Below are positions 23,252-62,790 of a stretch of 64,000 bases of DNA, in pieces. The stretch lies in IMG/VR virus record IMGVR_UViG_3300025652_000055, positions 3,272 to 67,271 of that record; one strand, 5' to 3'. Position 1 is the stretch's first letter; each line of letters starts with the position of its first letter. The DNA is from a virus. The position numbers and the translations under genes are program-made. Under the pieces are notes generated by a model. That model was not told the origin of the DNA. It ran no database searches and was given only the letters and a program-made list of their open reading frames with translations.

Positions 23252-26200
23252 ATGCCAGAATTTATTCATAACTTTACTCAGGGGAAGATGAATCATGATC
23301 TTGATGAAAGAATGGTTCCAAACGGTCAATATAGAGATGCATTAAACGTAACTGTAGCTACTTCTGAATCTAGCAATGTTGGTGCTTTGCAAAATTTAAA
23401 AGGTAATACAGAGTTGAAAGGTTCTCCAGCATCTTCTGGTAATTGGTCTTCTGATTACATAAACTCTCTTAACAACCCAGTCTGTATAGGTTCTATAAGA
23501 CATGAGCCGACAGAGTGTATATATTGGTTTGTAGCTACCGACAAGGGTACTACTAGATCAAGCGTTAGTGTTATAGCTGAGTTTAATCAAAAAACTGGTG
23601 ACGTAACACCTGTATTAGTTGACACTAAAGGTATATTAAACTTTACTAAAAATAACTTAATAACAGGTGTAAATATAATAGACGACTTATTATTCTTTAC
23701 AGATAATGTTAATGAACCCAAGAAGGTAAATATAAAAAAGTTTAAAAAAGGTTCTTCAAACGGTGGTACACCTAGTTTCAGTGTACACAGTAAAATTCCA
23801 ACTTACAACACTTCTAACAGAAACTATACTTATAATTCTTCTGGCGCTGACTTTGCAGAAGAAGATATTACTGTTATTAAAAAATCTCCATTAGATGAAC
23901 CGGGTTTATCTATGTCAGCTTCGCTGGTAAACGGTCCTGGAACAGGCACCGATCCTATAACCACAACTTACTCTTTAAACAACTACTACAACTTTACGTA
24001 CATAACAGAAGCCGCTACTAATAACTCACCAGCGGAGTACAAGCCACTACCAACGTTTCAAGAATATCAAGAAGCTTTAGGTACCGGTGGAGCGTTTCCA
24101 ACTAATATGGAGTTTGTAAACATAGTTGTATCAGCAGTACCAACAGGTTACGAGCCTGGTGACGTTATAGTTCTTAGTGGAAGCTATATAAATGACTACA
24201 ACAACGAAGATGAATACACTATAAGATTAGAGATAGATTTCGTAAACGGAGCTAATTTAAGGTGTAAGATTCAATCTATACCTAATAAGATATTAAGATT
24301 TGGAGCAGATCAAGACGAGCTAATAACATGGGAGGTTCTATTAGAAGAGAAAGATCCTATGTTTGAATTTGATTTTCCAAGATTTGCTTACAGATGGAAG
24401 TATGAAAATGGTGAGTACTCTACTTTTTCACCTTTTTCTGGACCAGCGTTTATAGGTGGTCAATTTGAATACTTATCTTCTGATGGTTATAACTTAGGTA
24501 TGAGAAACAACCTAAGGTCTTTAAGTATAAATAATCTTTACTGGGGAAGTACAGAGGTTGTTGAACTAGATATATTGTACAAAGCATCTAACAGTAACAC
24601 TGTGTATGTAGTAGATACCTTAAAGGATAGAACTAAAACTAGCTTTACTATTAAAAATGAATTAATTGGAGCCGCTGTAGAAGCTAACCAACTACTCAGA
24701 CCTTGGGATAACGTTCCAAGAAAAGCTAAAGCTCAAGAGGTTTCAGCTAATAGACTTATATACGCTAACTATATACAAAATTATAATGTTCCAAAAGTTG
24801 GTCTTATTTTAAGTTTAGCTACAAACAATCACACTGGTTTAAATGAAGAATCTGATACGTTTAGAGAACCAATACAAAGCGTAAAGTCTATAAGAAAATA
24901 TCAACTAGGTATTGTGTTTCAAGACGCTTACGGAAGACAAACACCGGTTTTTTCGGATGCAAACGCTACTATAAGCATAGATAAAGATGCAGCTGTTGGT
25001 GTTAGCAAATTTATAGCCACCGTACCGCCTGTACAAAATATGCCTAGCTGGGTAACGCATTATAAGTATTTTATTAAAGATACATCTAACGAATACTACA
25101 ACTTAGCTTTAGATAGATTTTATTTTGCTGAAGATGGCAACGTTTGGTTGAGTTTCCCTTCATCAGAAAGAAGTAAAGTTCAAATAGATAGTTATCTTAT
25201 ACTAAAAAAACAACACGACGTAGATAATCCTTCTATTGGTCCTTGTAGATATAAAGTTTTAGATGTTCAGTCTCAAGCTCCTGAGTTTGTTGCTAATTCT
25301 AAAAAGATTATAGCTTCAGCTCGCTGTGAAGTTGACGCTGGTTTTCAAGAAGATTTCTCTTTAATAACTTTTACAGGACCTAACGCTGATGATAATTCTC
25401 AGTTTGCAACAGCTTTTAATGGCGATAGCTTTATTACAATATCCGACGGTGGTAATACAACAGACATATTAGGGGTTAAATTTGGTGGACCTGTTTCAAG
25501 TAATGGTACAATGTACGAGGTGCAGTTAGACGAGCCATTTGGAGCAGACGCTTCTTTCTTCGGGGTATCAGGTTTAGTAGAGGGTGCAACTATTACTATA
25601 AATGTTTATAAAAACGAAGAAGAAAGACTACCAGAGTTTGAAGGTAGATTTTTTGTTAAAATAAATAGAGATACAGATTTTGATGTTAACATAATAAAAA
25701 CTTTTTCAGGTTTAAATAAAAGGTACGGTATAGTTGGCGCGGCTTATGTCGATAGAGTTACCGCTAGTTCTTCTTTGAGAGGTAGTTCATCAAGATGGGG
25801 GACATTTTTTAGAGATGCGGGAGAGGCAGCTGGAAATCCGTTTGGTGACTGTACATGTCCTGATTCCTGGAGACACAAAGGTGTCGAGCTAGGTGGTAAC
25901 GGTAATAGGTTAAACGGTTTTAATGGAGTTCCTTCAAATTCAAGAGTATTTATAGATGGTCAAACAGGTATGGAGCAGGCTTTTCACGCTGGTGCCGCTT
26001 ATAATAGAGAGTGGTTAGGTATTCTTAGAGCTGGTTTTTCAAATCCTATTTACGAACACTTAGGTAGTCAAAAAGCGTTTTTTGCAGAAAAAGCTGTAAA
26101 AGGGGCTTTAGTAAGAATAGTACACATAGACGGTAGAGTTTCTAAACCTTATGAAATTAAAAACCACTGGAGATTCAGAGGTGCTAGGGGAATAAGAAGA

Positions 26201-28750
26201 TGTTTTTGTGTGGATGGTTGTGGTGACTGTCAAAAAAGTACGCTTGGAAGTAATAGAGTTTTTTCTTTAGCGTTAGAGCTAACTAGCAAGGTTCAAGAAG
26301 ACTGGGTTGGTAACGGATCAGAATCAGCCTTAACCAACATAAGAGGTTTTCAAATAGTTGAAGAAGTTATAAGTGATGATAACAAAATAATATCTTCTAA
26401 CAATCCAGCTGTTTTTGAAACAGAGCCAAAAGAAGCTGTAGATATTGATATATATTACGAAGCATCAAATGCGTTACCTATATCAACTATAAATCAACAA
26501 TCAAAAATATTAAATTACTATAACTGTTATAGCTTTGGAAATGGTGTTGAGTCTGATAGAATAAGAGATGATTTCAACGCACCTAGAATAGGTAAAGGAG
26601 TTAAAGTGTCTGCTTTACTAGATGAACCATATATGGAAGAAAGAAGGTCAAGTGGTCTTATATTTTCTCAAATATACAACTCTCAAGCAGGTATAAATAG
26701 ATTAAATCAGTTTATACAAGCACAGCCTATAACTAAAGATTTAAACCCAGAGTATGGATCTATACAAAAGCTACATTCTAGAAACACAAACTTAATTACG
26801 CTTTGTGAAGACAAATGTTTAAAAATACTAGCAAATAAAGATGCTTTATTTAACGCCGATGGAAGTGCTAATATAACTTCTAACAAGGCTGTTTTAGGAC
26901 AAGCTGTTCCTTATGCTGGTGAGTTTGGTATTAGTACAAACCCAGAGTCATTTGCTTCCTATGGATTTAGAGCTTATTTTTCAGATAAAAATAGAGGAGC
27001 TGTAATTAGATTATCACAAGACGGTATAACTAATATTGCTTTAAAAGGTATGTCTGACTTTTTTGCAGACAACTTACCTAGTTCTACTAAAATAATTGGA
27101 AGTTATAACGATGACAAAGAAAATTACAATTTAACACTAGATTATTTAACTGACGAGTGGCAAGATAAGCTTTCTAAGACACCTAAAGATAAAACACACT
27201 GTGAAGTACCTAATGATGAATCTGATGATATAGAAACAACTACAGTATCATTTAAAGAGACTGTTGACGGTTGGACTAGTAGAAAATCTTATTATACTAA
27301 GACTGGTAGTGTTTTTTACCCACTAGAAAGTGGTGAATCTTTAAATGACAAGTATTATACTTTTAATAAAGGATTAATATGGGAGCATGCCTCTAATGAT
27401 TTATATAATAATTTTTATGGAACTCAATATGATAGCTCTGTCAATGTAGTGATAAATGACGCTACAGAGTCTATCAAAGGGTTTAAAACATTAAACTACT
27501 CTGGTACTGATTCTAGAAAATACTCTTATAACACGTCCAGTGGTTTAACGGGGTTGAGTATAGATCAGGTTGTAGCTCAACAAATATCACCTTCTATAAT
27601 AAACGCTGAAAACTATACGCCTGGTTGGTATACTAACTATATCAATACTGATATGGAGGAAGGTATGATAAAAGAGTTTGCTAAGAAAGAAAATAAATAC
27701 TTCAATAAAATAAAAGGTATAAAAACTTACTACAATGATAATTGTGATAATAATATTGATTCTTCTGCTTTTCAAACTCAAGGATTAGGTTTAGCTACTG
27801 TAACTTCATCTGCTCCAACTGCATTTAAATTAACAGTTAAGGTTGACGCTTCTTGTTCTACAGGAACAGGTAATGATCCACTGCCAGACACTACTAAAAA
27901 GTTCTGGTACTACTGGACATGCACCAAAACAGGGTCTAACGTAAACGTAGATATAAGACAAACGGCAACAGACCAACTTGTTAAATGTGGTATAGAAGAG
28001 TTTTATAATAATTTCCCTAACAATTACACTGGTATTGATAAGAATTATTTTAATTTTAAATTCTTTAATTCTTCAGGTGTTAACGTGAACACTATACTTT
28101 ATAACGAAAACAACGAGTCTATATCTACTAGTGGTAAGTTTTTATATGTTGAACCAGCTTCAACGCCTGACAACAACGCTTTAAACGCTAATGTTTCTGG
28201 CACTGCTGTTCCAAATACTTACTTTATATTAACTGTAACAAACGGTGTTATAACCGCTAAAACTCAATACAATACTTTAGCTAGTTGTGGAACACCTCTT
28301 GTGGCTGTAGACTTTTCTTTGTTCGTTGGTTATAGAGTTGGTGGTAACTCTACTAATTTGTTAACCGGTACAGCAGCACAACACGGTACTCCTTCTGGAA
28401 GAGCAGCTCTAGCTAAAACACAATTAAAAGATTGGTTAACTGGTCCATTAATAGGTCAAGTGAGTTCAAATAGATTAATTAGACTATCTGATATATACAA
28501 GTATTCCGGTGCAACTGGTTTAGTTGTTGGAGCTCAGCTTCACAATGATGTTGGTCCAATTGCTACAGATGGTATATTTGGGCACAACACTAACTCAGCG
28601 CCAATACCTAATGGTTATTGGTCTTACACTTCACCATCAAGCAACTCATTAAAAACAGATGCCGGCTGGTCAAGTCTTGATAGTGCTTGGAAGTTTATAA
28701 CATTTGAAAATGGAATAGTTACTCACATAACAACAATGAATACATTATAA
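23252..28750 (+). CDS. tail stabilisation/nozzle-like protein (P22 gp10/T7 gp12-like)
   Basis: N-terminal GKMNHDLDERMVPNGQYRDALN; beta-propeller-like GEFGISTNPESF and YFSDKNRGAVIRL. Confidence 0.7.
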   Translation: MPEFIHNFTQGKMNHDLDERMVPNGQYRDALNVTVATSESSNVGALQNLKGNTELKGSPASSGNWSSDYINSLNNPVCIGSIRHEPTECIYWFVATDKGTTRSSVSVIAEFNQKTGDVTPVLVDTKGILNFTKNNLITGVNIIDDLLFFTDNVNEPKKVNIKKFKKGSSNGGTPSFSVHSKIPTYNTSNRNYTYNSSGADFAEEDITVIKKSPLDEPGLSMSASLVNGPGTGTDPITTTYSLNNYYNFTYITEAATNNSPAEYKPLPTFQEYQEALGTGGAFPTNMEFVNIVVSAVPTGYEPGDVIVLSGSYINDYNNEDEYTIRLEIDFVNGANLRCKIQSIPNKILRFGADQDELITWEVLLEEKDPMFEFDFPRFAYRWKYENGEYSTFSPFSGPAFIGGQFEYLSSDGYNLGMRNNLRSLSINNLYWGSTEVVELDILYKASNSNTVYVVDTLKDRTKTSFTIKNELIGAAVEANQLLRPWDNVPRKAKAQEVSANRLIYANYIQNYNVPKVGLILSLATNNHTGLNEESDTFREPIQSVKSIRKYQLGIVFQDAYGRQTPVFSDANATISIDKDAAVGVSKFIATVPPVQNMPSWVTHYKYFIKDTSNEYYNLALDRFYFAEDGNVWLSFPSSERSKVQIDSYLILKKQHDVDNPSIGPCRYKVLDVQSQAPEFVANSKKIIASARCEVDAGFQEDFSLITFTGPNADDNSQFATAFNGDSFITISDGGNTTDILGVKFGGPVSSNGTMYEVQLDEPFGADASFFGVSGLVEGATITINVYKNEEERLPEFEGRFFVKINRDTDFDVNIIKTFSGLNKRYGIVGAAYVDRVTASSSLRGSSSRWGTFFRDAGEAAGNPFGDCTCPDSWRHKGVELGGNGNRLNGFNGVPSNSRVFIDGQTGMEQAFHAGAAYNREWLGILRAGFSNPIYEHLGSQKAFFAEKAVKGALVRIVHIDGRVSKPYEIKNHWRFRGARGIRRCFCVDGCGDCQKSTLGSNRVFSLALELTSKVQEDWVGNGSESALTNIRGFQIVEEVISDDNKIISSNNPAVFETEPKEAVDIDIYYEASNALPISTINQQSKILNYYNCYSFGNGVESDRIRDDFNAPRIGKGVKVSALLDEPYMEERRSSGLIFSQIYNSQAGINRLNQFIQAQPITKDLNPEYGSIQKLHSRNTNLITLCEDKCLKILANKDALFNADGSANITSNKAVLGQAVPYAGEFGISTNPESFASYGFRAYFSDKNRGAVIRLSQDGITNIALKGMSDFFADNLPSSTKIIGSYNDDKENYNLTLDYLTDEWQDKLSKTPKDKTHCEVPNDESDDIETTTVSFKETVDGWTSRKSYYTKTGSVFYPLESGESLNDKYYTFNKGLIWEHASNDLYNNFYGTQYDSSVNVVINDATESIKGFKTLNYSGTDSRKYSYNTSSGLTGLSIDQVVAQQISPSIINAENYTPGWYTNYINTDMEEGMIKEFAKKENKYFNKIKGIKTYYNDNCDNNIDSSAFQTQGLGLATVTSSAPTAFKLTVKVDASCSTGTGNDPLPDTTKKFWYYWTCTKTGSNVNVDIRQTATDQLVKCGIEEFYNNFPNNYTGIDKNYFNFKFFNSSGVNVNTILYNENNESISTSGKFLYVEPASTPDNNALNANVSGTAVPNTYFILTVTNGVITAKTQYNTLASCGTPLVAVDFSLFVGYRVGGNSTNLLTGTAAQHGTPSGRAALAKTQLKDWLTGPLIGQVSSNRLIRLSDIYKYSGATGLVVGAQLHNDVGPIATDGIFGHNTNSAPIPNGYWSYTSPSSNSLKTDAGWSSLDSAWKFITFENGIVTHITTMNTL

Positions 28751-33023: not shown

Positions 33024-36000
33024 ATGCCAGATTATATAGTAGGTGACAGAAAATACACGGAAGAAGAAGCAAACACTGCTGCTTCTGGTTTAGGTATGGA
33101 CATGAGCACTTGGAAACAAACTTTTAACGCCAAGGTTGTGGCGGGAAACCAATTAGATCCTGCAGAAAATGCGGAGGCGAATGCAGGGTCGGAAAACAAT
33201 CAAGCCTCAAACCAAGGAGAATCGGGTTCGTTTGGAAATCCTTCTTCATCGGTATCACTATTGAATAGAGATGAAATAAAAGAAGAAACACCAGAGTGGA
33301 TATCACAAATATACGAGGAAAATCCTTATGATCCATCTGCTCAAGATCAACAAGTTTTAATGGGTGGTGGATTTGAACATAATATAAATTTGCTAAAAAA
33401 AGAGCAGAAGAAATATACAATGTTTGATGTTAAATCTAGTGACATAGACGAAGAAATAAAAAGACTTGAGTTTGAACAAAACAACACAGGTGAAAGAAAT
33501 AGAACAAGAAGATCTAGAAATCATAGAGAAGTAAAGAATAAACTGTCTGAATATGATGATCAAATAACTAGAATATACAGTGACGAAAGTTTAAACATAG
33601 ATGAGCAAAAAACTTTAGAGCTTGCTGTAATAGAGGATAAAAATACTTATTTAAACTTCGGTATATCTAAGGCTGAAAAAAAAGATTACGAAGAAAACTT
33701 AAAGATTTTAGAGAATATATCTAAAACAACAGATAATGAGGCTAATAGTTCTGGCTTTCAGATACACTCTGATAATGAAGAAGAACAAATAGAGTTAACA
33801 CAACAAGTAGAAGACGAGATATTAAATACCGTAGGTAGTGACAGAAGAGCTAAGCAGAGATTAATTGGATCTGTTAGCGACGAAGCTATTACAGCTACTA
33901 TGGGTTTTGAGCAGAAAGAGCAGATAATAAACAATGCTAAAATGCAGGTTATTAGTAAAGCTTCTGATAAAGCTCAAAAAGATATGGCTCGTTTGCAAAA
34001 CGATCTTTATAAAGATTTTGATTCTGAAGATGATTTAACTCAAGCTGCTGTTGATGACTTTAATTTAAAAGCTAAAGAGATACAAGATACGTTTTATAAT
34101 CTAGCTGGTCAATATGATTTTGATTTAGCTACTAAAGCTTTCATGACTACAAACTTTGAAACAACAGCTGAGTTTCAAGAGTGGAGAGATAAGAAAATAG
34201 AAGACGGTGAGTTTGTGTCAAGTGCTGCTGATTTTGGCGCAACAATAACTCAAGGTTTGAGAGATTTTGGTACAGAGTACTTTTATGGAACAGCATCTAT
34301 GGTAAACAGGCTAGCGCTTTATGGTTTAACAAAAGCTGGTGTAGACACTCAAGGTATGTACGATAGGTTAAACTATATGGACGACTTAGTTGATAGTAGT
34401 TTTCTTAAAAACAATACATTTGGGACGTCTGATGTAGGAGGTTCTTTGTGGAAAGATGGTGTTAACGTTAGATCTAGTTTTAAAACTTTAGGTAACATGC
34501 TTCCTTTTACTTTAGCTTTAGCGGCTTCAGTTAAAAAAGGAGACTTACGTAAACTTAAAGACGTGTACAAGCTTTTTGGTAAAAACAAATCTGGATTAAA
34601 ATACGGTAACATTGGCTTAAACGTTCCTAAAATAAAAATAGGTGGTAAAACCTTATTAGAAGGTGGTAGAAAAACTATTGGTGGTATAAACATGAATACC
34701 ATTAGAATGGGCCAAACAGCTTACATGGGTACCATAAGAGATAATTATAATGAAGCTATAGACATGGGCTTGGATGAAGGTCAAGCTTTAGCATATAGTA
34801 ACATGGCATCTTTCGCAACATCCGTTGTTCAAGGTATAATGCCAGACGCTAACTTCTTTAATACAGCTGCGGGTAAAGGATTATTGAATACTTTCAAAGG
34901 TGATTTAAGTAAAGCAGCTAGTAAAAAAGCTATAAAAGAAGTAAGCAAACAATTTGCAAATAATCTTATAGGAGAGATTGGCGAAGAGGAAATGGAACTA
35001 CTTCTTACAGATATGGCTAAATTAACCGTTGGATTATCTAATCAAACAGGGTTTTTAGACGCACAGACTCAGTTCGAAACTTTAATGGGTACACTTATAC
35101 TTTCAGGCTCAACGTCTGTAGCAACATCTACTGTTGGTGGTGGTTACAGCAATGTTAAAAAACAAGTATACTTAGAAGCAAGAGCAAACATTACCGGCGT
35201 TATGGAAACGTTGAAAGCTAACAAAGAGTACAACCAAAATCTATACGACAGAGCTAAAGCTGCTGGTAAACAAGATTTAATGGATAGAGCTAAGCTAGAT
35301 CTTGATCAAGCTAATGCTGCTTTACAACATGGTAATGATATTAAAAACGCTATAAACTTAGGTGGAGAGTTTGTTACTGATAAAGAAATAGATTTATACA
35401 TACAAAAGCAAAAACTACTTGATGCTAAAAAGAATCTAGGAGCTAAAGCTACAGCAACTGTAGAGATGATGATTGATGGTGTTGCTACTACTTTTACTGG
35501 AGATTTACAAGGTATAAACGAAAAGATATCAGAAATAGATGGTGAAATTGCTGGTGGAAGGGTAACCCAAAACAAGGAAGAGATATCAAAGAAAACAACT
35601 GAAGCTTCTGAGAAAACAGCTAAAAAGCTGGGTATTGATATGAATACTTTTGAAGATGACGATGTTTCTGTTGAAGGTAGCAAAACCGCAGACCAAAAAG
35701 TTAAAGATAGAATAGACGAAATAAACGCTGGGTTACCTGAGAGAAACAAAGGTAAAAGCAAAGAAGAACAAGATCAAAAAGTAAACGTAAAAAGAGTAGG
35801 CGACAATGGTTTTGTAGTACAATATAAAGATGGTACTCAGGAAATAATAATAAACAAAACTAAGTCAGAAAAAAATAGTGAAACAACAGTTGCTCAGCAC
35901 GAGGTATTACATAGTGTTTTAAATGAAACACTAATGAAAAACCCTAAAGCAGCTCAAGCTATGGCTGGTGTTTTAAAAGAGCAAGTGGACAGTATGATAG

Positions 36001-39000
36001 CTAAAGGTTATGATCCTAGTTCATATTTGTCGGCTAAACTACAAGCTTACAAGAATAACTCAGCTGATGTTCAAGCAGAGGAATTACTTACTTTCTTTTC
36101 AGATGGTATGGCTCAAGGTTTCATAGGTTTTGAAGAAAACACGTTTACTAAAATAAAAGATGTTTTAAGACAAACGTTTCAAAATTTAGGTATAAAAGGT
36201 ATAGAGTTTAATACAGGTAGAGATGTTTATAACTTTCTAAAAGACTACAACAAGTCAATGGCTAGTGGTAAAGGTATTAAAGGTTCTATATTAGATGTAG
36301 CTAAAAAAGGTGCTAAAGGTAGTTTAGTTAACGGTATAGGATCTCAAACAGCTTTAGAAAGAAAGGTTAACAAATCTTTTGATACAAAAGCTAAAGGCTA
36401 TGGATCTGAAATAGTAAATTTTTATACACCATATATAAAGAAAGCGGTATTTGGTAATAACAAAAGTCTTTACGGTAATAAAGCTTTAGTTGGTCAAGTT
36501 AGAGAAGTTCAAGCTAAGATACTTGACATAGTTAAAAATCACAACAACTCTGATCCTATATCTCTTACAGATAAAATAGGTAGATTATTTGGACCTACTG
36601 GTACTAGTGAAAACACTAAAAGTTCTAAAGATTTATATAGTAGTACTGAAATGATCATGGGACTTGACGAGTCTATGACAGAAGATGATAGAATAGAACA
36701 CATGAGTAACATGTCTGAGTCTAATAAAACTAGACTAGGACAATTAGTTGGTTACGAGTATACTAATGAAGTAAAGAAGAGATTAAGAAAGTTTAGTAAG
36801 ATACCAGGGTTTAAAGCTGTTGAAGAAAGCATTTTAGCTGATATAACTTATGGTACTACAAAACAAGGTAAAAGCGGTAAAGAAGTAAAAGTACAAGGTA
36901 TTGTTGGTATAGTTGAAAGATACAGTGGAGCTATAGAGCTTAACAGATGGATCAATGGTCAGCTAGATAATAAAATACAAGGTATAGTAGAAAGCTACAA
37001 CTTAGGTAAAGAAGTTCAAGAGTTTAGTACAAAAAGTGCTAAAGGTCCAAGTATAAACAAAGGTAAATATACTAATATATTAAAGACAAACGCTGTACCT
37101 AGTTTTGCTAAAAGACAATTAAAGGAAAGTGTTATTAAAGTTGTTAGAGTTTTAAAAACATCTGTATTCAAAGCAACTTCTAAAAACGTAACAATAGCTC
37201 CTTGGATAAGAGAGTTTAAAAAAGAAGTAGGTAAACAGAACGATATAGTTTTTAAAAAAATAATGGGTGGTTTAGCTAATGATAAATTCTCTAAATACTT
37301 ATTAAAAAACAAAAAGGTTATATTAGAAAATATGACAACCACTTGGTTAGGTGGAGCAATACCAGCGGCTGTACAAAAGAAGGTTGATGGTAGATGGACA
37401 CCAGACTGGAAAGGTAAAAAAGTAGACTTTGAGTCTAGCGCAGAGACAGGTAGAACTTCTGGGTTAGAAATGGTAAAAAGAGATACTGATATATCTGATG
37501 AAAAGTTTTTATCTTACTTTGGCGAAGTTGTAGTTAAAGATGGTAAACCTACATTAAAATCTTTAACTAGAGGTAGAAAGGAGTCTTTAGCTAAAGCTAT
37601 GGCTGAAGAAACTGGTTTAGAACTTGTAGCAAATGATTCCGAGGTATTTAATGAACTAACCAGTAATCAAGATAGACTAGGTGTAGTATCAGCTTCTATA
37701 GACATACTTGATATAGGTAGAGATATAGAAAGAGGAAACGCTAAGTCAAACAAGTCACCAGAAGTAGTACAAGAGGCTTTGTTTAACATGATGAATGAAG
37801 CTATATTAAATGGTGGTAATTCAGATTCTTATTTGCTTTACAAGTCAGAGCAACCTAAAGATATACAGGCTTACGCTGAAGAGATTGGCTTAGGTACTTA
37901 TTTTGATGAAGGTAAAACTGGTTATAAAAAACCTTTACTAGAGTGGTCTGATATGCCAGTGCTGTTTGGGCCAGCAAAAGAAATATACAAAAGAACCATA
38001 ACAAACAAAACCAAAGATGAGTCAATGAAACAATTGGCTGATTTTTCAAACGCTTTGATAGACGTATTACCTCCAGATTTAGTTGATGCTGTTGGTAATG
38101 ATATGTTTGCTATAGTTTACGCATACCTAGATGGTGCAGAGAAAAAATCTGACGGTAAGCCAGGTAAGTATAATTATTTAGCTAAAAAAAGAAAAGCAAA
38201 AGCAGATCAAGAATCTGATATAGAGTTAACTTTTAACCCTGCAGACATAAGAATATTTAACTCTGCTAGTGGTGTTATGAAGCAAATAACAACTATACTT
38301 AAAAAAGATATAACAGCAGCTGAAAAGCAGGCTATGGTTGAAGAGAAATTTGGAGACATAATAGCTAAAGCTGAAATAGCGAACATAGAAGCTTTAAAGT
38401 ATATAATGGACAAAGCTACTGAGCTTATAGCTGAAGATCCTTCGCTAGCTCCTGGTTTTATGAGGTGGATGGAAACTTCAACAAACAACGTAAAAGCTCA
38501 AAGAGGTTTAACAAGGTTACCATTAATACAATATGTTGATGGATCAATGGAAGCAGATGAAACTCATGTGTTTTATGATCAAGCTAAGGAATTTGCTATA
38601 GAAAGATCTACAGCTATGTATGATAAGCTTCCAGCTAAAACTAAAAAGGAAGTAACACTACAGCAATTTATAGATGAAAGATTAGAAAAACATCCACCAG
38701 AAAAACATTTAAAGTTCAAGGGTGAGCATGTTGATCCAGCTGCAAACGTTATGCTTGACTTAGCTAAAGTTGCATTAAAAACAGCTGCTAAGATACATCA
38801 AATGGGTTTACTTAACAAGCCTAAGCAATTACGTGCTATAAATACTTTTGCTGGGTTAGAGATGGATAAAATACTACGTACTTATAGTCAAACACTTGGT
38901 TCAGAGTTATTTTCAGCTATTCAAGATAACTCACTAGGTACAACGTCTAAGCTTGGTGACTTTAGAGGACTAACAGTTGATCCTAATTCCTACAACACGT

Positions 39001-41969
39001 TCTTAACGTCGGAAGGCATACAAGCTGTAGAGTATATAAAAAGAGAAAACTTATCTATAGATTTTATAAATAAAATAATAAGTAGAGTAAATGTAGATAA
39101 TTATATAAATAATCAAAATAGGACTGACGCATTAAACAATGCCCTTGACCCTAATAAGAAGGTAAAAGGTATTTCTGTTTTTGATTTTGATGATACGTTG
39201 GCTCAGACCAAGTCTAATGTGCTATACACAATGCCTGACGGCACTAAGGGTAAAATAGATGCTACACAGTTCGCGGCTCAATCGGCTGACTTAGAAGCTC
39301 AGGGAGCTGTTTTTGATTTTAGCGAGTTTAGCCAAGTAATAGACGGTAAAAAAGGTCCTTTAGCTGATTTAGCTCTAAAACGTCAAGGCAAGTTTGGTAG
39401 TGGGGATATTTTTGTTTTAACCGCAAGACCTCAAGCCTCCGATATTGCTATTCAAAAGTTTTTAAAAGAAATAGGTTTAGATCTTAAAATAGCTAATATA
39501 ACAGGTTTAGCAGACGGCACGGCTCAAGCTAAGGCAGATTGGATAGTGGGTAAAGCGGCTGATGGTTACAATGACTTTTATTTTGCTGACGATGCTATTA
39601 AAAATGTCAAAGCAGTTAAAGAAGCACTTAGTGTTTTAGATGTTAAAGGTGATGTGCAACAAGCTATAGTAAAATCAAACAAAGGTAGAAGCCAAGAGTT
39701 TAACGAGATGCTAGAGGCTAGAACTGGTATTGATGCCGTAAAAACTTTCTCTAAAGCAAAAGGAGAAATGTTAGGTAGAGGTAAAGGTAGGTTTAGATAT
39801 TTTCTACCTCCATCAGCAGAAGACTTTATGGGTCTAATGTACAACTTTTTAGGTAAAGGTAAAAAGGGTGATGCAGATAAAAAGTGGATAGAAGATAACT
39901 TAATGAAGCCTTACTCAAGAGGTATTGCTAATATAGAAAGAGCTAAGCAAGCGGTACAAACTTCTTACAACGCTTTAAGATCAGAATTTAAAGATGTAAG
40001 AAAAAAACTAGGTAAGCAAATACCAGATTTAGGTTTTACTTACGATCAAGCTATTAGAGTATACTTGTACACTAAAGCAGGACATAAAATACCTGGATTA
40101 TCTAAAAGTGATCTAAAAGATTTATTAACTATAGTAAGCGGAGATCAAAGAGTTAAACTATTTGCAGACAGTGTTGGTTTAATATCTAATCAAAAAGAAG
40201 GTTACACTGCCCCAGGAGAATATTGGTTGACAGGTAGTATAGCTAGTGACTTAAATGATATAACACAAAAAGTAGGTAGAAAAGAGTTTATAAAAGAGTT
40301 TATAGATAATTCAAAAGAAATATTTAGTGAAGAAAACTTAAACAAGATTGAGGCTGCTTATGGTCAAAACTTTAGAGAATCACTAGAAGACATACTCTAT
40401 AGAATGGAGAATGGTACTAATAGGACTTTTGGTAAAAACAAGCTTGCAAACAAATGGAGTAATTGGTTAAACAACTCTGTTGGTGCTATAATGTTTTTTA
40501 ACATGAGATCTGCTTTGCTACAAACTCTGTCAACTGTAAACTTCGTTAACTGGACAGATAATAACCCTGCTAAGGCCGCGTTGGCGTTTGCAAACCAACC
40601 TCAATACTGGAGAGATTTTGCAACTATATTTAATTCAGATAAATTAAAACAAAGACGTAAAGGTTTAAAGACAGATGTAAATGAGGCTGAACTAGCTAAT
40701 GCAATGGCTGGTAGCAAGAACAAGGCACAAGCTGCTTTTCAATACTTATTAAAAATAGGTTTTACACCTACTCAAATAGCGGATAGTTTTGCTATAGCTT
40801 CAGGTGGCGCTACAATGTACAGAAATAGAATAAAAACATATTTAAAACAAGGCATGGATCAAAAACAGGCTGAAGATAAAGCTTGGGAAGATTTCTCTAT
40901 GTTAGCAGAAGAAACTCAACAGTCATCTGATCCGTCTTTAATATCCGCACAGCAAGCTGGTCCTTTAGGTAGGTTTGTTTTAGCTTTCCAAAATACACCT
41001 ATGCAGTACAATAGGCTTATTAAGAAAGCTGGTAGAGATTTAATAAATGGTAGAGGAGACTGGAAAACTAATGTTTCTAAGATAGCTTACTATGGAGCAA
41101 TACAAAACTTTATATTCTCTGCTATGCAGAAAGCTTTATTTAGTATGTTGTTTGAAGATGAAGAAGAACGATGTGAAGGTTTAGAAGGTAAGAAACTTGA
41201 GGCGTGTCAAAATAAAGAGTGGAAAGTAGATGTTGGTAATAGTATGGCAGACAGTATTCTTAGAGGTAGTGGACTTTATGGTGCTGTAGGAGCAACGCTT
41301 AAAAACGCTATAAGACAATTTAGAAAACAAGAAAATAAAGGATTTACAGCAGATCACACGTACACTATATTAGAATTGGCTAACTTATCCCCACCGTTGG
41401 GTTCTAAGCTAAGAAAAGTATATAGCGCTATACAAACCTATAGATTTGAGAAAGATGTTATAAAAGAAAGAGGATTAAATTTAGATAGCCCTACTTGGTC
41501 TGTAATAGGTAATCTAGTAAGTGGCGGTACAAATGTTCCTTTAGACAGGCTTGTTAAGAAGTTTAACAACATAAATGCAGCACTAGACGAGAGGAACGCT
41601 ATATGGAAAAGAGCTTTCTTTGCATTTGGATGGAATACATGGGATTTAAAAGCTGAGCCTAACGAAACACATGAGCAAATAAAATCAGACGCTAAAGCTA
41701 AAAGAAAAGAAGCTGGCAAGATAAAAGCTAAAGAAACTAGAGAGCAAAACAAAATAAAAGAAGCTCAACGTTTAGCAAACATGGACCCTATAGAAAGAGC
41801 TGAATACGAGGCTGAGAAAAAAAGAAAAAGATCTGAGTCTGCTAAAAAAGGTGCTGAAACAAGAAGAATAAATAAAAGAATAAAAGACTCTATAGCTAGG
41901 TCTTCGATTTTAGAAAGACAAGATAGATTATTAGAAGAGTACAGAAAGAAAAACAAAAAAAACAAATAA
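33024..41969 (+). CDS. giant multidomain virion (ejected) protein with zincin HEVLH, sigma-region-2-like segment and HAD domain
   Basis: 2981 aa; HEVLH at 35898-35912; HAD motifs VFDFDDTL, VLTAR and YFADD at about 39170-39600. Confidence 0.7.
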   Translation: MPDYIVGDRKYTEEEANTAASGLGMDMSTWKQTFNAKVVAGNQLDPAENAEANAGSENNQASNQGESGSFGNPSSSVSLLNRDEIKEETPEWISQIYEENPYDPSAQDQQVLMGGGFEHNINLLKKEQKKYTMFDVKSSDIDEEIKRLEFEQNNTGERNRTRRSRNHREVKNKLSEYDDQITRIYSDESLNIDEQKTLELAVIEDKNTYLNFGISKAEKKDYEENLKILENISKTTDNEANSSGFQIHSDNEEEQIELTQQVEDEILNTVGSDRRAKQRLIGSVSDEAITATMGFEQKEQIINNAKMQVISKASDKAQKDMARLQNDLYKDFDSEDDLTQAAVDDFNLKAKEIQDTFYNLAGQYDFDLATKAFMTTNFETTAEFQEWRDKKIEDGEFVSSAADFGATITQGLRDFGTEYFYGTASMVNRLALYGLTKAGVDTQGMYDRLNYMDDLVDSSFLKNNTFGTSDVGGSLWKDGVNVRSSFKTLGNMLPFTLALAASVKKGDLRKLKDVYKLFGKNKSGLKYGNIGLNVPKIKIGGKTLLEGGRKTIGGINMNTIRMGQTAYMGTIRDNYNEAIDMGLDEGQALAYSNMASFATSVVQGIMPDANFFNTAAGKGLLNTFKGDLSKAASKKAIKEVSKQFANNLIGEIGEEEMELLLTDMAKLTVGLSNQTGFLDAQTQFETLMGTLILSGSTSVATSTVGGGYSNVKKQVYLEARANITGVMETLKANKEYNQNLYDRAKAAGKQDLMDRAKLDLDQANAALQHGNDIKNAINLGGEFVTDKEIDLYIQKQKLLDAKKNLGAKATATVEMMIDGVATTFTGDLQGINEKISEIDGEIAGGRVTQNKEEISKKTTEASEKTAKKLGIDMNTFEDDDVSVEGSKTADQKVKDRIDEINAGLPERNKGKSKEEQDQKVNVKRVGDNGFVVQYKDGTQEIIINKTKSEKNSETTVAQHEVLHSVLNETLMKNPKAAQAMAGVLKEQVDSMIAKGYDPSSYLSAKLQAYKNNSADVQAEELLTFFSDGMAQGFIGFEENTFTKIKDVLRQTFQNLGIKGIEFNTGRDVYNFLKDYNKSMASGKGIKGSILDVAKKGAKGSLVNGIGSQTALERKVNKSFDTKAKGYGSEIVNFYTPYIKKAVFGNNKSLYGNKALVGQVREVQAKILDIVKNHNNSDPISLTDKIGRLFGPTGTSENTKSSKDLYSSTEMIMGLDESMTEDDRIEHMSNMSESNKTRLGQLVGYEYTNEVKKRLRKFSKIPGFKAVEESILADITYGTTKQGKSGKEVKVQGIVGIVERYSGAIELNRWINGQLDNKIQGIVESYNLGKEVQEFSTKSAKGPSINKGKYTNILKTNAVPSFAKRQLKESVIKVVRVLKTSVFKATSKNVTIAPWIREFKKEVGKQNDIVFKKIMGGLANDKFSKYLLKNKKVILENMTTTWLGGAIPAAVQKKVDGRWTPDWKGKKVDFESSAETGRTSGLEMVKRDTDISDEKFLSYFGEVVVKDGKPTLKSLTRGRKESLAKAMAEETGLELVANDSEVFNELTSNQDRLGVVSASIDILDIGRDIERGNAKSNKSPEVVQEALFNMMNEAILNGGNSDSYLLYKSEQPKDIQAYAEEIGLGTYFDEGKTGYKKPLLEWSDMPVLFGPAKEIYKRTITNKTKDESMKQLADFSNALIDVLPPDLVDAVGNDMFAIVYAYLDGAEKKSDGKPGKYNYLAKKRKAKADQESDIELTFNPADIRIFNSASGVMKQITTILKKDITAAEKQAMVEEKFGDIIAKAEIANIEALKYIMDKATELIAEDPSLAPGFMRWMETSTNNVKAQRGLTRLPLIQYVDGSMEADETHVFYDQAKEFAIERSTAMYDKLPAKTKKEVTLQQFIDERLEKHPPEKHLKFKGEHVDPAANVMLDLAKVALKTAAKIHQMGLLNKPKQLRAINTFAGLEMDKILRTYSQTLGSELFSAIQDNSLGTTSKLGDFRGLTVDPNSYNTFLTSEGIQAVEYIKRENLSIDFINKIISRVNVDNYINNQNRTDALNNALDPNKKVKGISVFDFDDTLAQTKSNVLYTMPDGTKGKIDATQFAAQSADLEAQGAVFDFSEFSQVIDGKKGPLADLALKRQGKFGSGDIFVLTARPQASDIAIQKFLKEIGLDLKIANITGLADGTAQAKADWIVGKAADGYNDFYFADDAIKNVKAVKEALSVLDVKGDVQQAIVKSNKGRSQEFNEMLEARTGIDAVKTFSKAKGEMLGRGKGRFRYFLPPSAEDFMGLMYNFLGKGKKGDADKKWIEDNLMKPYSRGIANIERAKQAVQTSYNALRSEFKDVRKKLGKQIPDLGFTYDQAIRVYLYTKAGHKIPGLSKSDLKDLLTIVSGDQRVKLFADSVGLISNQKEGYTAPGEYWLTGSIASDLNDITQKVGRKEFIKEFIDNSKEIFSEENLNKIEAAYGQNFRESLEDILYRMENGTNRTFGKNKLANKWSNWLNNSVGAIMFFNMRSALLQTLSTVNFVNWTDNNPAKAALAFANQPQYWRDFATIFNSDKLKQRRKGLKTDVNEAELANAMAGSKNKAQAAFQYLLKIGFTPTQIADSFAIASGGATMYRNRIKTYLKQGMDQKQAEDKAWEDFSMLAEETQQSSDPSLISAQQAGPLGRFVLAFQNTPMQYNRLIKKAGRDLINGRGDWKTNVSKIAYYGAIQNFIFSAMQKALFSMLFEDEEERCEGLEGKKLEACQNKEWKVDVGNSMADSILRGSGLYGAVGATLKNAIRQFRKQENKGFTADHTYTILELANLSPPLGSKLRKVYSAIQTYRFEKDVIKERGLNLDSPTWSVIGNLVSGGTNVPLDRLVKKFNNINAALDERNAIWKRAFFAFGWNTWDLKAEPNETHEQIKSDAKAKRKEAGKIKAKETREQNKIKEAQRLANMDPIERAEYEAEKKRKRSESAKKGAETRRINKRIKDSIARSSILERQDRLLEEYRKKNKKNK

Positions 41970-55138: not shown

Positions 55139-55894
55139 TTACAGGTAGTCAATCACTTGCGATGGCTTTGTGTTTGCTATTAAGCTTTTAATACCATCTC
55201 TTTTTATCTGTGAAACTCTAACTATTGCCGTGTTAACTTTCATGTTTAGTTTCTTAGCTATTTGTATCGCGGAGTGTTTATCACAGTCTAAACCATAACT
55301 CATTCTAACAACCTCTCCTTGCTCATGAGTTAAGTGTTCTTTTATTAAACCCATTAAGTAAGCGTTCATTAGATGAATATTATAAGATGGAGTTTTATCT
55401 TCTATATTGTATATAGGATTATCATCGCTTCTTGTTGACTCATCAATACTAGAAAATATTGAGTTGAAAAACATTGCCACCATTTTATCATCTTCAGGGT
55501 TATTTCTTATTTCATTAAGCTTATGTTCTGGTATACGTATATCACCCCGTTTCATATCAATTGCTCTACGTATTTGACCTTTTATTCTTTTTGATAGAAA
55601 AGATTTTAATGTTTTTTCTACGTCAGGTGATTCGTCTATCATTTGCCAGTCTATTTTATCTACTGCTAAAATCAAACCTATACTACCTTCTTGTAATAAG
55701 TCATTTATACTTAGAACACCTGAAGCCTGCTGTGATGTAGCAAACTTTCTAGCTAAGCTTTCTACTAAAGGAAGAAATTTTATTATAAGTTCTTTTCTTG
55801 TATACTCGTCATAAAACTTACCTTCAAGATTTGCTATAGATGTCTTAACATCTTCTTTGTATCTTATGTAGTTTTGTATGTTATATTTTTTCAT
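55139..55894 (-). CDS. sigma-70 family RNA polymerase sigma factor
   Basis: Region 2 FLPLVESLARKF...DLLQEGSIGLILAVDK; region 4 HTH with RVSQIK. Confidence 0.85.
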   Translation of the reverse strand: MKKYNIQNYIRYKEDVKTSIANLEGKFYDEYTRKELIIKFLPLVESLARKFATSQQASGVLSINDLLQEGSIGLILAVDKIDWQMIDESPDVEKTLKSFLSKRIKGQIRRAIDMKRGDIRIPEHKLNEIRNNPEDDKMVAMFFNSIFSSIDESTRSDDNPIYNIEDKTPSYNIHLMNAYLMGLIKEHLTHEQGEVVRMSYGLDCDKHSAIQIAKKLNMKVNTAIVRVSQIKRDGIKSLIANTKPSQVIDYL

Positions 55895-58629: not shown

Positions 58630-58660
58630 TATTATCGGTTCTCGTTCGTATTATTTTTGT
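58630..58660 (-). promoter_or_regulatory. putative early promoter, copy 1
   Basis: ACAAAAATAATACG-AACGAGAACC-GATAATA. Confidence 0.75.
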
Positions 58661-59103
58661 ATAGGCCATTCTTTGTAGCCATAATCAGGTGTATTATATC
58701 TTATATCAACATTATATGAAGGTAAAACAAATACGTTCTCAGACGAATAGTTGTCATAACAACTAATCCAAACGTCAGACTTACCTACCCATATTATATA
58801 AGTATAGTGATGGTCAATACTGTCTACACTAGGATAAAGATATTGACTATTGTAGTGAAAATCTGCAACCAAATGCGCAGCTATTCTCGATCCATCACCG
58901 AAATTGTTGAACTTTTTATATTCTTGCATGTAATTCACCCATCTAGATAAGTCAACACCAAGACCTTCAGGATAGCCGTCGTGATGTAAATACATGTTTA
59001 CATAGCTTTTGTCAGCCAGCAAAGATGGTTTACAAGCAAAACCTAGCTCGTTGTTTTCAGCTTCTGATCTGTCAACAACCATTGTTATACTTCTTGTACT
59101 CAT
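58651..59103 (-). CDS. conserved phage early protein
   Basis: MSTRS...YLHHDGYPEGLG. Confidence 0.65.
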   Translation of the reverse strand: MSTRSITMVVDRSEAENNELGFACKPSLLADKSYVNMYLHHDGYPEGLGVDLSRWVNYMQEYKKFNNFGDGSRIAAHLVADFHYNSQYLYPSVDSIDHHYTYIIWVGKSDVWISCYDNYSSENVFVLPSYNVDIRYNTPDYGYKEWPIQK

Positions 59104-59122
59104 AATTATATTTTAAAATTAG

Positions 59123-59195
59123 GTGCGCAGGGAGGACTCGAACCTCCGACCTCTAGCTTATGAGGCTAGCGAGCTGCCTGCTGCTCTACCGCGCA
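59123..59195 (-). tRNA. tRNA with CAU anticodon (Met)
   Basis: Full cloverleaf: TGCGCGG/CTGCGCA, GAGC/GCTC, CTAGC-CTCATAA-GCTAG, GGAGG-TTCGAGT-CCTCC. Confidence 0.9.
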
Positions 59196-59207
59196 ATGTG
59201 TATAGCA

Positions 59208-59477
59208 TTAGTCAAGTAATACCATATATGCTTTTACATTATTTTTCTTAAACCAGTCTAGTGCTTTATCAAAATGATTAATCTGCTGTTTAGTAGGCTT
59301 AATTCCCATAGCCCACACGTGATTACAACCCATAATGAAGTCGTATAAAGATAGCTCTATGTTATTAAGTTCATAAGTTTCACCACTAAAAGGGTTAGTA
59401 ACTTTATCACCTTCGTTATACACAGAGCCATCAAACCACTTAGGTATTTTTTGTTCAACACTATTCATCTTCAGCAT
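59208..59477 (-). CDS. hypothetical protein
   Basis: ORF with VTNPFSGE...AYMVLLD. Confidence 0.6.
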   Translation of the reverse strand: MLKMNSVEQKIPKWFDGSVYNEGDKVTNPFSGETYELNNIELSLYDFIMGCNHVWAMGIKPTKQQINHFDKALDWFKKNNVKAYMVLLD

Positions 59478-59817
59478 CTATTACATTAAAACAATCTTCT
59501 ACATAGTCACATATACATTCTTCTAAGTCAGACTCACCGTCGAATTCTATATTAGATAATCTTAGTTGGTTATCGTAGTCAATTTCAAAGTCATAAGTAT
59601 AAGAGTCTATGTTATCAAAACTTACCTGTTGTACTGCTTGATGTACAGCTTCTCTTAACTCATCTATCTGAGAAGGATAAAGCTTAGGTTTACTAATGTC
59701 AGCTAGTTTTTTCTGAGCTTCTATTAGATCGTCTTTTAGTACTTTTGCGTTTAACTCTACTGAGTTTAAAGTTGTTTCCAGTTTGTCAACTTTTTCTTGT
59801 AATTCTATTTTAGTCAT
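59461..59817 (-). CDS. hypothetical protein
   Basis: Coiled-coil N-terminus, acidic C-terminus. Confidence 0.6.
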   Translation of the reverse strand: MTKIELQEKVDKLETTLNSVELNAKVLKDDLIEAQKKLADISKPKLYPSQIDELREAVHQAVQQVSFDNIDSYTYDFEIDYDNQLRLSNIEFDGESDLEECICDYVEDCFNVIDAEDE

Positions 59818-60029
59818 AGTTCTTTATTTATTATATTATCTATTTTATTTATTAAGTAATCTTTGTCTGACATATTGCCATAATATTCTTGTAAATGCCA
59901 AGCTATATCGTGTAGCTTGTTTTCTAAAGCTGTAATATATATTTTATCATCTTGTTTAATAGGCATTTGTCTTGGATCTATATCACCAGACTCTACTAAT
60001 TCGTGGTATTTTTTTATTGTATCACTCAT
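59814..60029 (-). CDS. hypothetical protein
   Basis: 71 aa, coupled to its neighbours. Confidence 0.55.
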   Translation of the reverse strand: MSDTIKKYHELVESGDIDPRQMPIKQDDKIYITALENKLHDIAWHLQEYYGNMSDKDYLINKIDNIINKEL

Positions 60030-60268
60030 TAGCTTTTGTCTATAATTTTATCACCATACATAAAGCTATATGAATCTAGCTCCCAGCTGTTAACTCCGCC
60101 ATATGTCAATAGGTCTCTAACCTCGTCAATAGTCAAGGCTGACCATATGTATTTTGACATTAGTGTATATTTTAATCTTTTAGCTGTAGCGTATTCTCTA
60201 GCGCTAGCTCTTAATTTTAGCTTTACATCTGGTAAAAGCTCGTCGTAAATTGTTTTTAAATCTGCCAT
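60029..60268 (-). CDS. hypothetical protein
   Basis: Likely start MADLKTIY just downstream of the promoter motif. Confidence 0.6.
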   Translation of the reverse strand: MADLKTIYDELLPDVKLKLRASAREYATAKRLKYTLMSKYIWSALTIDEVRDLLTYGGVNSWELDSYSFMYGDKIIDKS

Positions 60269-60279
60269 TTGTTTTATTA

Positions 60280-60310
60280 TATTATCGGTTTTTATTCGTA
60301 TTAAATTTGT
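60280..60310 (-). promoter_or_regulatory. putative early promoter, copy 2
   Basis: ACAAATTTAATACG-AATAAAAACC-GATAATA. Confidence 0.75.
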
Positions 60311-60315
60311 ATTAG

Positions 60316-60393
60316 TGGAGGTGGACAGAATCGAACTGTCTTCCGTAATAGTTCCATATAGGCTTTCTATCACGTCAAAACCAGGTCACCCCC
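60316..60393 (-). ncRNA. mini-tmRNA-like RNA (tRNA-like domain only)
   Basis: GGGGGTG/CACCTCC-A acceptor with G3.U70; ACCTGGTTTTGAC without a D-stem; helix GTGATAG/CTATTAC; T-arm GACAG-TTCGATT-CTGTC. Confidence 0.75.
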
Positions 60394-60397
60394 ATTA

Positions 60398-60502
60398 CGT
60401 AGTTATCTCCGTTTCCATGAGTTCATAACGATCCCTCACCACTTCAACGATCGGACTTCCACCGTGCATGCAGTTAATTACTCTGCAACCCGTGATACTA
60501 CG
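60398..60502 (-). ncRNA. putative structured RNA, module A
   Basis: Termini pair (CGTAGTATC / GATAACTACG); internal TGCAG/CTGCA and CGATC/GATCG stems. Confidence 0.45.
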
Positions 60503-60503
60503 A

Positions 60504-60591
60504 CTTATAAAATTAAAGGATCTTCGTCAGCTTAACCACGTATCTCCTCGCTGAGTTCCTACAGCCATACTGAGCCCTTCACATTTATAAG
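60504..60591 (-). ncRNA. putative structured RNA, module B
   Basis: Termini CTTATAAA/TTTATAAG plus an inner GAAGGG/TCCTTT pairing. Confidence 0.35.
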
Positions 60592-60595
60592 ATTT

Positions 60596-60686
60596 TAGTA
60601 ACTAGCGAAGGAATCGAACCTTCATACTCGTCAGTAGTAATGAACTCTGTTTAACTTAATAACACCTGTTACATCCATACCTAGTT
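60596..60686 (-). ncRNA. tRNA-like element (acceptor stem plus T-arm)
   Basis: AACTAG../GCTAGTT-ACTA; GAAGG-TTCGATT-CCTTC. Confidence 0.6.
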
Positions 60687-60863
60687 TACCGGCTATTGTG
60701 TGATCACTAATCGTATCTTTCGCCATCGGTTTTCGTATTTATATAGAGCCATATACCGTAAAACTCTAAGCTAGCTATTCACTTATGTAATTTAGGTACC
60801 ATTTATCGTGGTATCTTTACGGTATACACCCACCTAAATCCTAATTAAGCTACTCGTCTAGCG

Positions 60864-61052: not shown

Positions 61053-61079
61053 AGTTTATTATTTTAATTGTTACATTTA

Positions 61080-61110
61080 TATTATCCGAAAGTTATCGTA
61101 TTATTTTTGT
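61080..61110 (-). promoter_or_regulatory. putative early promoter, copy 3
   Basis: ACAAAAATAATACG-ATAACTTTCG-GATAATA. Confidence 0.75.
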
Positions 61111-61491: not shown

Positions 61492-61492
61492 A

Positions 61493-61747: not shown

Positions 61748-61749
61748 AT

Positions 61750-61881: not shown

Positions 61882-61891
61882 AATTTATATT

Positions 61892-62764: not shown

Positions 62765-62790
62765 AGTGTATATATTATTTGTTACATTAT

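Follow-up and report, generated by a model that had tools for sequence, protein, structure and literature searches.

Domain 2 of the sigma-70 family docks on the β' clamp helices of RNA polymerase and contacts the −10 element, and phages are known to encode sigma factors of their own as products made after infection, such as T4 gp55 and SPO1 gp28. Gp55, the late sigma of T4, is made of a sigma2-like domain only and is a free protein of ~185 amino acids, produced during infection, that works with gp33 and the sliding clamp; we know of no report that it is packaged. The transcription tools known to be delivered into the cell are whole polymerases, as in N4 and the crassviruses, and modifying enzymes such as T4 Alt. 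Here we describe a sigma2-like domain within a giant protein encoded by the phage of IMG/VR virus record IMGVR_UViG_3300025652_000055, which is rated complete by CheckV and of which we analysed 64,000 of the 67,271 bases (positions 3,272 to 67,271, hereafter the window). The terminase of this phage is nearest to those of Flavobacterium, Cellulophaga and Tenacibaculum podoviruses.

Giant 'polyvalent' proteins that bear a zincin motif and are delivered with the DNA form an established class that includes the virion RNA polymerase (vRNAP) of N4, as set out in the main text of Iyer, Burroughs, Anand, de Souza and Aravind (2017; PMC5512222). That main text, as distinct from its supplements, uses the term 'sigma' 0 times. 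In PhiCrAss001 the muzzle gp44 is followed by the cargo proteins gp45, gp46, the RNA polymerase-associated gp47, gp49 and gp50, and gp44-gp47, gp49 and gp50 were all found in virions by mass spectrometry, according to the part of PMC10172136 that deals with them.

By its sequence the giant protein of the window falls into the 'polyvalent' class, being a phage-encoded multidomain giant with an HExxH motif. It shares with the proteins treated in the main text of PMC5512222, N4 vRNAP included, the giant size, the HExxH motif, enzymes of nucleic-acid ends, a gene in the virion block and a presumed delivery; unlike N4 vRNAP, it showed no polymerase domain in Pfam scans. The PhiCrAss001 proteins gp45-gp50 (PMC10172136) are likewise encoded downstream of the muzzle, very large, mostly helical and presumably ejected into the host, where they would set off events linked to transcription. 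The crassvirus cargo and vRNAP proteins differ from the giant protein, in which no RNA polymerase domain was detected and a putative sigma2 docking domain is found instead, and the phage has a canonical sigma gene in addition. A sigma2 domain in place of a polymerase, together with a sigma gene of the phage's own, would imply reliance on the host polymerase. Pfam scans of the giant open reading frame (ORF), made with the whole protein and ten overlapping pieces, found no RNA-polymerase domain, and the only DxD-type motif is that of the HAD domain. A six-frame PF00940 search of the genome was empty, as it was for the control genomes. The parts of the ORF that concern the domain are these:

33024..41969, + strand: giant ORF, a multidomain 'polyvalent'-type protein and probable virion cargo of 2,981 residues, frame 1 (ORF list and translation)
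35898..35912, + strand: HEVLH zincin (HExxH) motif, residues 959-963 (position and homologue alignment)
36624..37037, + strand: sigma2-like domain, corresponding to sigma-70 regions ~1.2-2.4, residues 1201-1338 (AlphaFold2 helices)
36855..36893, + strand: β-hairpin insertion, residues ~1278-1290, TKQGKSGKEVKVQ, within the region-2.2-like part (model strands E83-86 and E92-95)
39132..39677, + strand: HAD-type phosphatase, polynucleotide-kinase-phosphatase-like, residues 2037-2218 (phrog_415 'polynucleotide kinase', E 1.6e-4)

The sigma2-like domain

It had been proposed, from the DNA letters alone, that a segment of the giant protein resembles sigma region 2. The strings behind that original prediction are present in frame 1 of the + strand ORF and span residues 1237-1318, with RLGQLVGYEY starting at residue 1237 (nt 36732), QGIVGIVERYSG at residue 1291 (nt 36894) and NRWINGQLDNKI at residue 1307 (nt 36942). 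The interval assigned to the segment, 36700-37010, corresponds to residues 1226-1329 and lies inside the domain as delimited by AlphaFold2. Its placement between a zincin motif and a HAD domain was also correct, since HEVLH starts at residue 959 (nt 35898) and FDFDDTL, the motif of the HAD domain, at residue 2053 (nt 39180).

A search with residues 1100-1500 (3,413 candidates) gave 45 giant homologues of 1,647-3,206 residues at E<=0.001. Most of these align only from residue ~1295-1350 onward, and the sigma2-like segment sits in a weakly conserved zone, in which the mean fraction of homologues sharing the query residue is 0.22 per position. A profile of the domain (alignment A2) was run against 1.84 billion proteins and found 371 representatives at E<=1e-3, the best 150 of which are either giants of 2,000-3,400 residues, with the domain at residue ~900-1,700, or fragments. 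A relative of the giant protein is encoded on 179 viral contigs. The hairpin insertion is limited to the window protein and seven close relatives in A2.

Segments excised from the homologues, which the A2 profile ties to the window domain with E values down to 1e-31, match Sigma70_r2 (PF04542, gathering cut-off 24 bits) or Sigma70_ECF in Pfam. The matches share one register and run from profile positions ~1-20 to 65-69 of 71. Among the members of alignment A1, 1/29 had a sigma match (E 4.7e-6). A second set gave 5/25, the best being P0020 with 28.4 bits (E 1.4e-6) and the remaining four having E values of 0.024, 0.11, 0.18 and 0.19. We also scanned 48 of the 75 segments taken from 50%-identity representatives, and 15 of the 48 matched, led by one hit of 28.7 bits with E 1.2e-6 and another of 21.4 bits with E 2.2e-4; the rest had E from 0.0025 to 0.15. 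Taking the last two sets as 73 segments (25 + 48), two lie above the Sigma70_r2 cut-off and 18 more fall below it in the same register; no Pfam family other than sigma occurred in more than two segments of any single scan. The match emerges only with excised segments, since 14 full-length homologues scanned against Pfam gave no sigma match. A six-frame PF04542 search of related genomes touched two giant ORFs (2,920 residues, E 0.010; 2,828 residues, E 0.024).

The conserved positions of the family follow the sigma pattern. Realigned distant relatives share the motif aromatic-D/N-P..G..L..aromatic-I/L.G.I..R, which matches ERYSGAIELNRWINGQLDNKI in the window. Across 184 sequences the domain core consists of an aromatic residue at 1300 (100%) followed by D/N and P, L1306 (80%), an aromatic residue at 1309 (96%), a hydrophobic residue at 1310 (99%), N1311 (69%) and a basic residue at 1317 (82%), in agreement with F-D-P..G..F..Y-A as found in the E. 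coli RpoD sequence. The F-D-P turn is kept, as is the aromatic residue at the position equivalent to Y430, in 96% of the 184 sequences. Other profile comparisons gave fainter signals. With the 184-sequence alignment, hhalign against six E. coli sigmas placed residues 1245-1314 on RpoE 28-78 (P 0.01), and against the phage's own sigma it aligned region 2.1 (P 0.009); the family profile against RpoE alone gave 17 columns in register at E 0.42. In the ESM Atlas PF04542 occurs in 1/30 neighbour clusters, where 19% of the members have it. BLASTP of the window segment against the phage's own 251-residue sigma found no match.

An AlphaFold2 model of residues 1196-1345, built from 39 sequences, had a predicted local distance difference test score (pLDDT) of 88.4 and a predicted template modelling score (pTM) of 0.78, and shows eight helices, running over residues 1201-1338, together with the hairpin. 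Comparison of this model with 48,161 PDB representatives using VIA-align returned sigma domain 2 at every one of ranks 1-13, with modest Z scores of 5.3-6.0. SigR, ShbA, sigma32, RpoS, sigma28, SigB and pro-sigmaK occupy ranks 1-7, and 7d7d_F, sigmaE region 2, 7ye1_F, SigC, sigmaS and SigW ranks 8-13; chain F of PDB 7d7d is, in our reading, T4 gp55. Sigma-factor titles account for 23 of the 50 listed rows, a count in which CnrH, BldN and AlgU are assumed to be sigma factors, and four further rows are chain F of initiation complexes. An independently built model of 501 residues (residues 1120-1620, 29 sequences, pLDDT 76.6) gave the same sigma2 matches for residues ~1199-1334, covering the sigma2 part of the chains only. 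Another stretch that had looked sigma-like by eye, residues 1127-1189, was discarded, having only generic three-helix fold matches. Co-folding of the domain with residues 215-345 of the β' subunit of Flavobacterium johnsoniae (RPOC_FLAJ1), in runs made without controls, gave scores of 0.31 and 0.00, where the mark was 0.32, and so counts on neither side of the question of binding.

Judged by the matches of its relatives and by the modelled fold, residues ~1201-1338 are a very diverged yet genuine homologue of domain 2 of the sigma-70 family. The likeness exceeds chance at the level of family and fold, and not on the window's own sequence. The closest known domains are those of PF04542, especially of the extracytoplasmic function (ECF)/group 4 and group 3 factors (SigR 1h3l, sigmaE 2mao, SigC 2o7g, sigma28 6pmj), with which the phage domain shares the core aromatic-D/N-P..G..L..aromatic-hydrophobic and a family whose members reach the Pfam cut-off. 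It differs from them in that the window sequence lies below all profile thresholds and, in the hhalign register, the β'- and −10-contacting residues known from sigma70 are not kept. Domain 2 of ordinary sigmas, which are 170-600 residues long, forms their N-terminal half, whereas the phage domain is found at residues ~1200-1340 of 2,981, without sigma3 or sigma4 and with a 13-residue hairpin in region 2.2. The domain is also an example of a sigma2 that has diverged far below profile thresholds with its fold retained.

The idea that the segment is a full sigma factor did not hold, as Pfam, the fold matches and a six-frame search gave no region 3 or 4 in the giant ORF. Neither Sigma70_r4 nor r4_2 matched it in Pfam at E<=10, and a six-frame PF08281 search of the genome gave no hits beyond the small sigma ORF and the ORF next to it. 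A sigma4-like candidate at residues 2534-2612 (GFTPTQIADSFAIASGGATMYRNRIKTYLKQ, 40623-40859, + strand) was considered and rejected: it aligns with the region 4 helix-turn-helix in the same register for RpoE 104-179 (P 0.006) and for the phage sigma region 4 (P 0.12), has no Pfam r4 or r4_2 match and is not significant after 76 tests. Since no region 4 was found, the domain would be a sigma2-only module. In this it resembles T4 gp55, also phage-encoded and a lone sigma2 able to act as a specificity factor, and it differs from gp55 in being part of a presumed virion cargo and in that the comparative data described below oppose promoter reading.

Candidate early promoters and the phage's own sigma factor

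The original prediction further suggested that the domain may redirect host RNA polymerase to promoters of the form TACG-N10-GATAATA. The features that bear on this claim are:

58630..63764, − strand: five exact TACG-N10-GATAATA copies, upstream of the gene for the small sigma and candidates for early promoters (motif search)
55139..55894, − strand: canonical sigma factor of 251 residues, separate from the giant protein (Sigma70_r2 26 bits, cut-off 24)

Each copy of the motif lies within a conserved stretch of ~45 nt, TACAAAaATAA-TACG-N10-GATAATAtaaatgtaac, and the cluster is upstream of small early genes and of the 251-residue sigma gene. A further site is present at genome position 29-49 (+ strand), outside the window. 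The motif is found in exact form in 17/17 related genomes, with 135 sites in strand-biased clusters, compared with one site for the reversed pattern used as control. The TACG-N10-GATAATA motif is unlike the Bacteroidota primary-sigma consensus, which is TTTG ... TAnnTTTG.

The sigma2-like domain behaves very differently from this motif. It could be scored in 14/16 relatives and is 96% identical in one of them and 10-16% identical in the other 13, in which the helix that would read the −10 element (regions 2.3-2.4) is 13-26% identical. In the remaining two of the 16 the match to the domain profile is weaker than E 1e-3, with a divergent copy at the expected place. Absence of the domain from L044 and L061 was considered and rejected, a divergent copy being in place in both (domain E 1.1e-5 for L061, by eye only for L044). 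The suggested redirection to TACG-N10-GATAATA was not borne out, given a motif that is exact in all 17 genomes, a helix that varies this much in 13 of 14 and the presence of a separate sigma factor. Because the promoter is invariant and the domain hypervariable, the domain is unlikely to be the promoter reader, and probably does not recognise the conserved early promoters in a sequence-specific way.

From these comparisons it is more likely that the early promoters are read by a conserved factor, either the host primary sigma or the 251-residue sigma of the phage. Orthologues of the latter occur as open frames of 251-286 residues in 14/16 related genomes (60-72 kb, with the giant protein) and are 55-84% identical; of the other two genomes, one has only a 38-residue open frame (E 0.0013) and in one no orthologue was detected. 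The recognition helix of regions 2.3-2.4, KSF(L/F)SKRIKG.IRR, is invariant in 14/14 orthologues, and region 4 gives a weak match. Two observations count against the 251-residue sigma as the reader, namely the position of its gene, downstream of the motif cluster, and genome G004, which has six copies of the motif and no detected sigma. All 8,000 scored candidates, of which many come from ocean surveys, are relatives of this sigma at E<=0.001. An ORF of 207 residues adjoins the sigma gene (55881-56504, − strand) and matches HTH_23 (E 8e-4) and, weakly and in the six-frame search, Sigma70_r4_2 (E 0.01); from these matches its product may act with the 251-residue sigma or be another small transcription factor.

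Virion context and possible roles

The giant ORF ends the virion block, with the portal, terminase, virion structural proteins and tail fibres encoded upstream, and follows by four genes an ORF that is relevant to its position:

23252..28750, + strand: crAss-type muzzle-like tail protein of 1,832 residues, four genes upstream of the giant ORF (Pfam crAss_MUZ_C, phrog_14478)

The muzzle-like ORF scores 27.8 bits with crAss_MUZ_C (cut-off 27) and matches phrog_14478, 'virion structural protein', at E 2e-130. Its crAss_MUZ_C domain implies that the tail of this Flavobacteriia podovirus shares the muzzle module of crassviruses. By synteny with the muzzle the gene of the giant protein thus lies in the virion module, as had been predicted, at the position of the ejected cargo and vRNAP genes of crAss-like phages. 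Because of its place in the virion block, four genes after the muzzle gene, we infer that the giant protein, as is the case for crassvirus and N4 cargo and vRNAP proteins, is most likely packaged and leaves the particle together with the DNA. A tail-fibre ORF of 672 residues (9298-11316, + strand) matches many PHROG tail-fibre families strongly through collagen-like repeats.

The reading of the domain that we favour, and in which we place about as much belief as doubt, is that of an RNA-polymerase-docking module of a virion-delivered polyvalent protein. The giant protein would travel inside the particle and enter the cell along with the DNA, and the ejected protein, or a fragment cut by its zincin, would dock through the sigma2 domain on the host RNA polymerase core as the genome enters. 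Docking could hold the polymerase at the incoming end of the genome or keep the host sigma off the enzyme. A more specific version, in which the protein leaves the particle before the DNA or together with it and its sigma2 module seizes the host core at the entry site, in replacement of the virion RNA polymerase of crAss-like and N4-like phages, is more tentative, and we would call it possible and no stronger. A sigma2 domain built into a presumed virion cargo would add a third means of seizing transcription at time zero. If the more specific version is true, the giant protein would be the first sigma-derived protein to be carried inside a virus particle, and it would give control of transcription, or genome entry driven by transcription or shut-off of the host, ahead of all phage gene expression. 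In our literature searches we met no published description of a virion protein with a sigma domain. With 8,000 relatives of its sigma and 179 contigs with the giant protein, the phage group is abundant in marine metagenomes.

Several results weigh against this reading, at the level of homology as well as of function. Pfam scans of the whole protein and of pieces of 400, 200 and 137 residues gave no Sigma70 match for the window segment at E<=10; the proposed likeness to sigma region 2 consequently stands for the sequences of the family and for the fold, and not for the window's own sequence. Foldseek against the PDB found nothing at E<=0.001 with either model (best E 0.42 and 0.69), with a WhiG chain at rank 12 only (E ~1), so of the two structural comparisons VIA-align of the AlphaFold model gives sigma domain 2 and Foldseek does not. 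Searches of PDB sequences with hmmsearch gave no match for A1 and six chance-level rows for A2 (E 0.23-2.8), none of them a sigma. Control hhalign comparisons along the giant protein (76 comparisons, 38 windows with two profiles) reached a minimum P of 0.0047, and for this reason we give little weight to the P values of ~0.01. In the hhalign register against RpoD the positions of Q406/E407, W433/W434, Q437 and T440 of sigma70 are not kept; the QE of region 2.2 serves β' binding and W433, W434, Q437 and T440 serve melting and the −10 element, and ECF sigmas differ at these positions too. A sigma2 fold by itself says nothing on function. No homologue was found in cultured, proteomically studied phages either, the presence in the particle being read from synteny, and among the cultured phages of INPHARED neither blastn with nt 36000-38000 nor tblastn with residues 1120-1620 or 2230-2900 gave a match.

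Some of these results would be expected if the domain were an ordinary helical bundle whose sigma2 likeness is convergent or due to chance: the window sequence lacks a sigma match, PDB profile searches and Foldseek lend no sigma support and the hhalign P of 0.01 lies inside the control range. We consider such an origin very improbable, as two of the 73 scanned members exceed the Sigma70_r2 cut-off (28.4 and 28.7 bits) with 18 more below it in the same register, sigma chains fill ranks 1-13 of 48,161 and do so again with the independent model, and every alignment agrees on the register. Alternatively, the homology could be real and the polymerase role lost, the sigma2-derived domain serving to bind single-stranded DNA or DNA ends or acting as a structural or packing module of the cargo protein. 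Such reuse would sit well with the 10-16% identity within the family, with conserved positions that are mostly buried hydrophobic and turn residues and with neighbouring domains that act on nucleic-acid ends (the HAD phosphatase, and a polynucleotide-kinase-type P-loop kinase in relatives), and sigma2 itself binds single-stranded non-template DNA. We think it rather unlikely, given that nearly all of several hundred giants (the 371 representatives) retain the domain in an unchanged position, that all solved structures it resembles are polymerase-bound sigma domains and that there is no positive evidence of DNA binding.

The idea closest to the original prediction is that of a true injected minimal sigma in the manner of T4 gp55, perhaps freed by the zincin, which directs the host core to the TACG-N10-GATAATA promoters ahead of the synthesis of any phage protein. 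The sigma2 homology and fold hold for it, its gene occupies the place where crAss-like phages encode the virion RNA polymerase, the motif includes a −10-like GATAATA, and five copies of it precede both the small early genes and the gene for the phage's own sigma; since they lie upstream of that gene, the 251-residue sigma would be absent at time zero unless delivered. Against it stands the promoter comparison: a motif identical at 135 sites in all 17 genomes faces a helix that is 13-26% identical in 13 of the 14 scored relatives and a domain profile that falls short of E 1e-3 in two of 16. For the TACG box we found neither a region 4 nor any other second element that could read DNA, the positions of W433, W434, Q437 and T440 are not conserved, and the invariant helix of the 251-residue sigma, the same in 14/14 orthologues, fits an invariant promoter better. 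An injected sigma of this kind therefore appears improbable to us. The same comparison of motif and domain favours docking alone.

Other parts of the giant protein and of the window

The remaining conserved regions of the giant protein are the following:

37059..37823, + strand: strongly conserved block behind an acidic/polar linker, residues 1346-1600 (conservation profile, near-invariant columns)
39771..41723, + strand: most conserved C-terminal region, residues 2250-2900, followed by a Lys/Arg-rich tail (conservation profile)

Residues 1346-1600 are the best conserved part near the sigma2-like segment and are mixed α/β in the 501-residue model. Their consensus is ILENMTTTWL..A.P.AVQK.V.G..T.DW.GKKIDRE...AGRTSG, for which the window has GKKVDFE and ETGRTSG. 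The block has no match in Pfam or among PDB sequences, and the ESM Atlas gave nothing above 0.78 for residues 1346-1620; the VIA-align comparison of the 501-residue model barely covered it. In residues 2250-2900 the fraction of homologues identical to the query is 0.43-0.77 per position. Pfam has nothing for this region at E<=0.01, the weak rows being DUF885 (E 0.033) and DUF4355 (E 0.91).

Of the zincin motif, H959, E960 and H963 are kept in 43/45 aligned homologues, and the remaining two have gaps there. The giant ORF matched no Pfam peptidase or LPD family in whole-protein and piecewise scans. The polynucleotide-kinase-type HAD domain at residues 2037-2218 is the sole PHROGs match of the giant ORF, and its DxDxT motif is present in 29/45 homologues. 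Several relatives of the giant protein (for example P0011 and P0015) carry Zeta_toxin/AAA_33 P-loop kinase domains. The combination of the HAD domain with the P-loop kinase of relatives suggests, from sequence, a delivered end-healing activity similar to polynucleotide kinase-phosphatase, perhaps countering host defences that cleave tRNA or other RNA.

Other genes of the window include:

43469-43876: thioredoxin
44446-44910: Peptidase_M15, likely the endolysin
45201-46919 and 47837-48805, − strand: ribonucleotide reductase, both subunits
53780-55067, − strand: ERF recombinase with a PDDEXK-like protein
57535-58380, − strand: ATP-dependent DNA ligase

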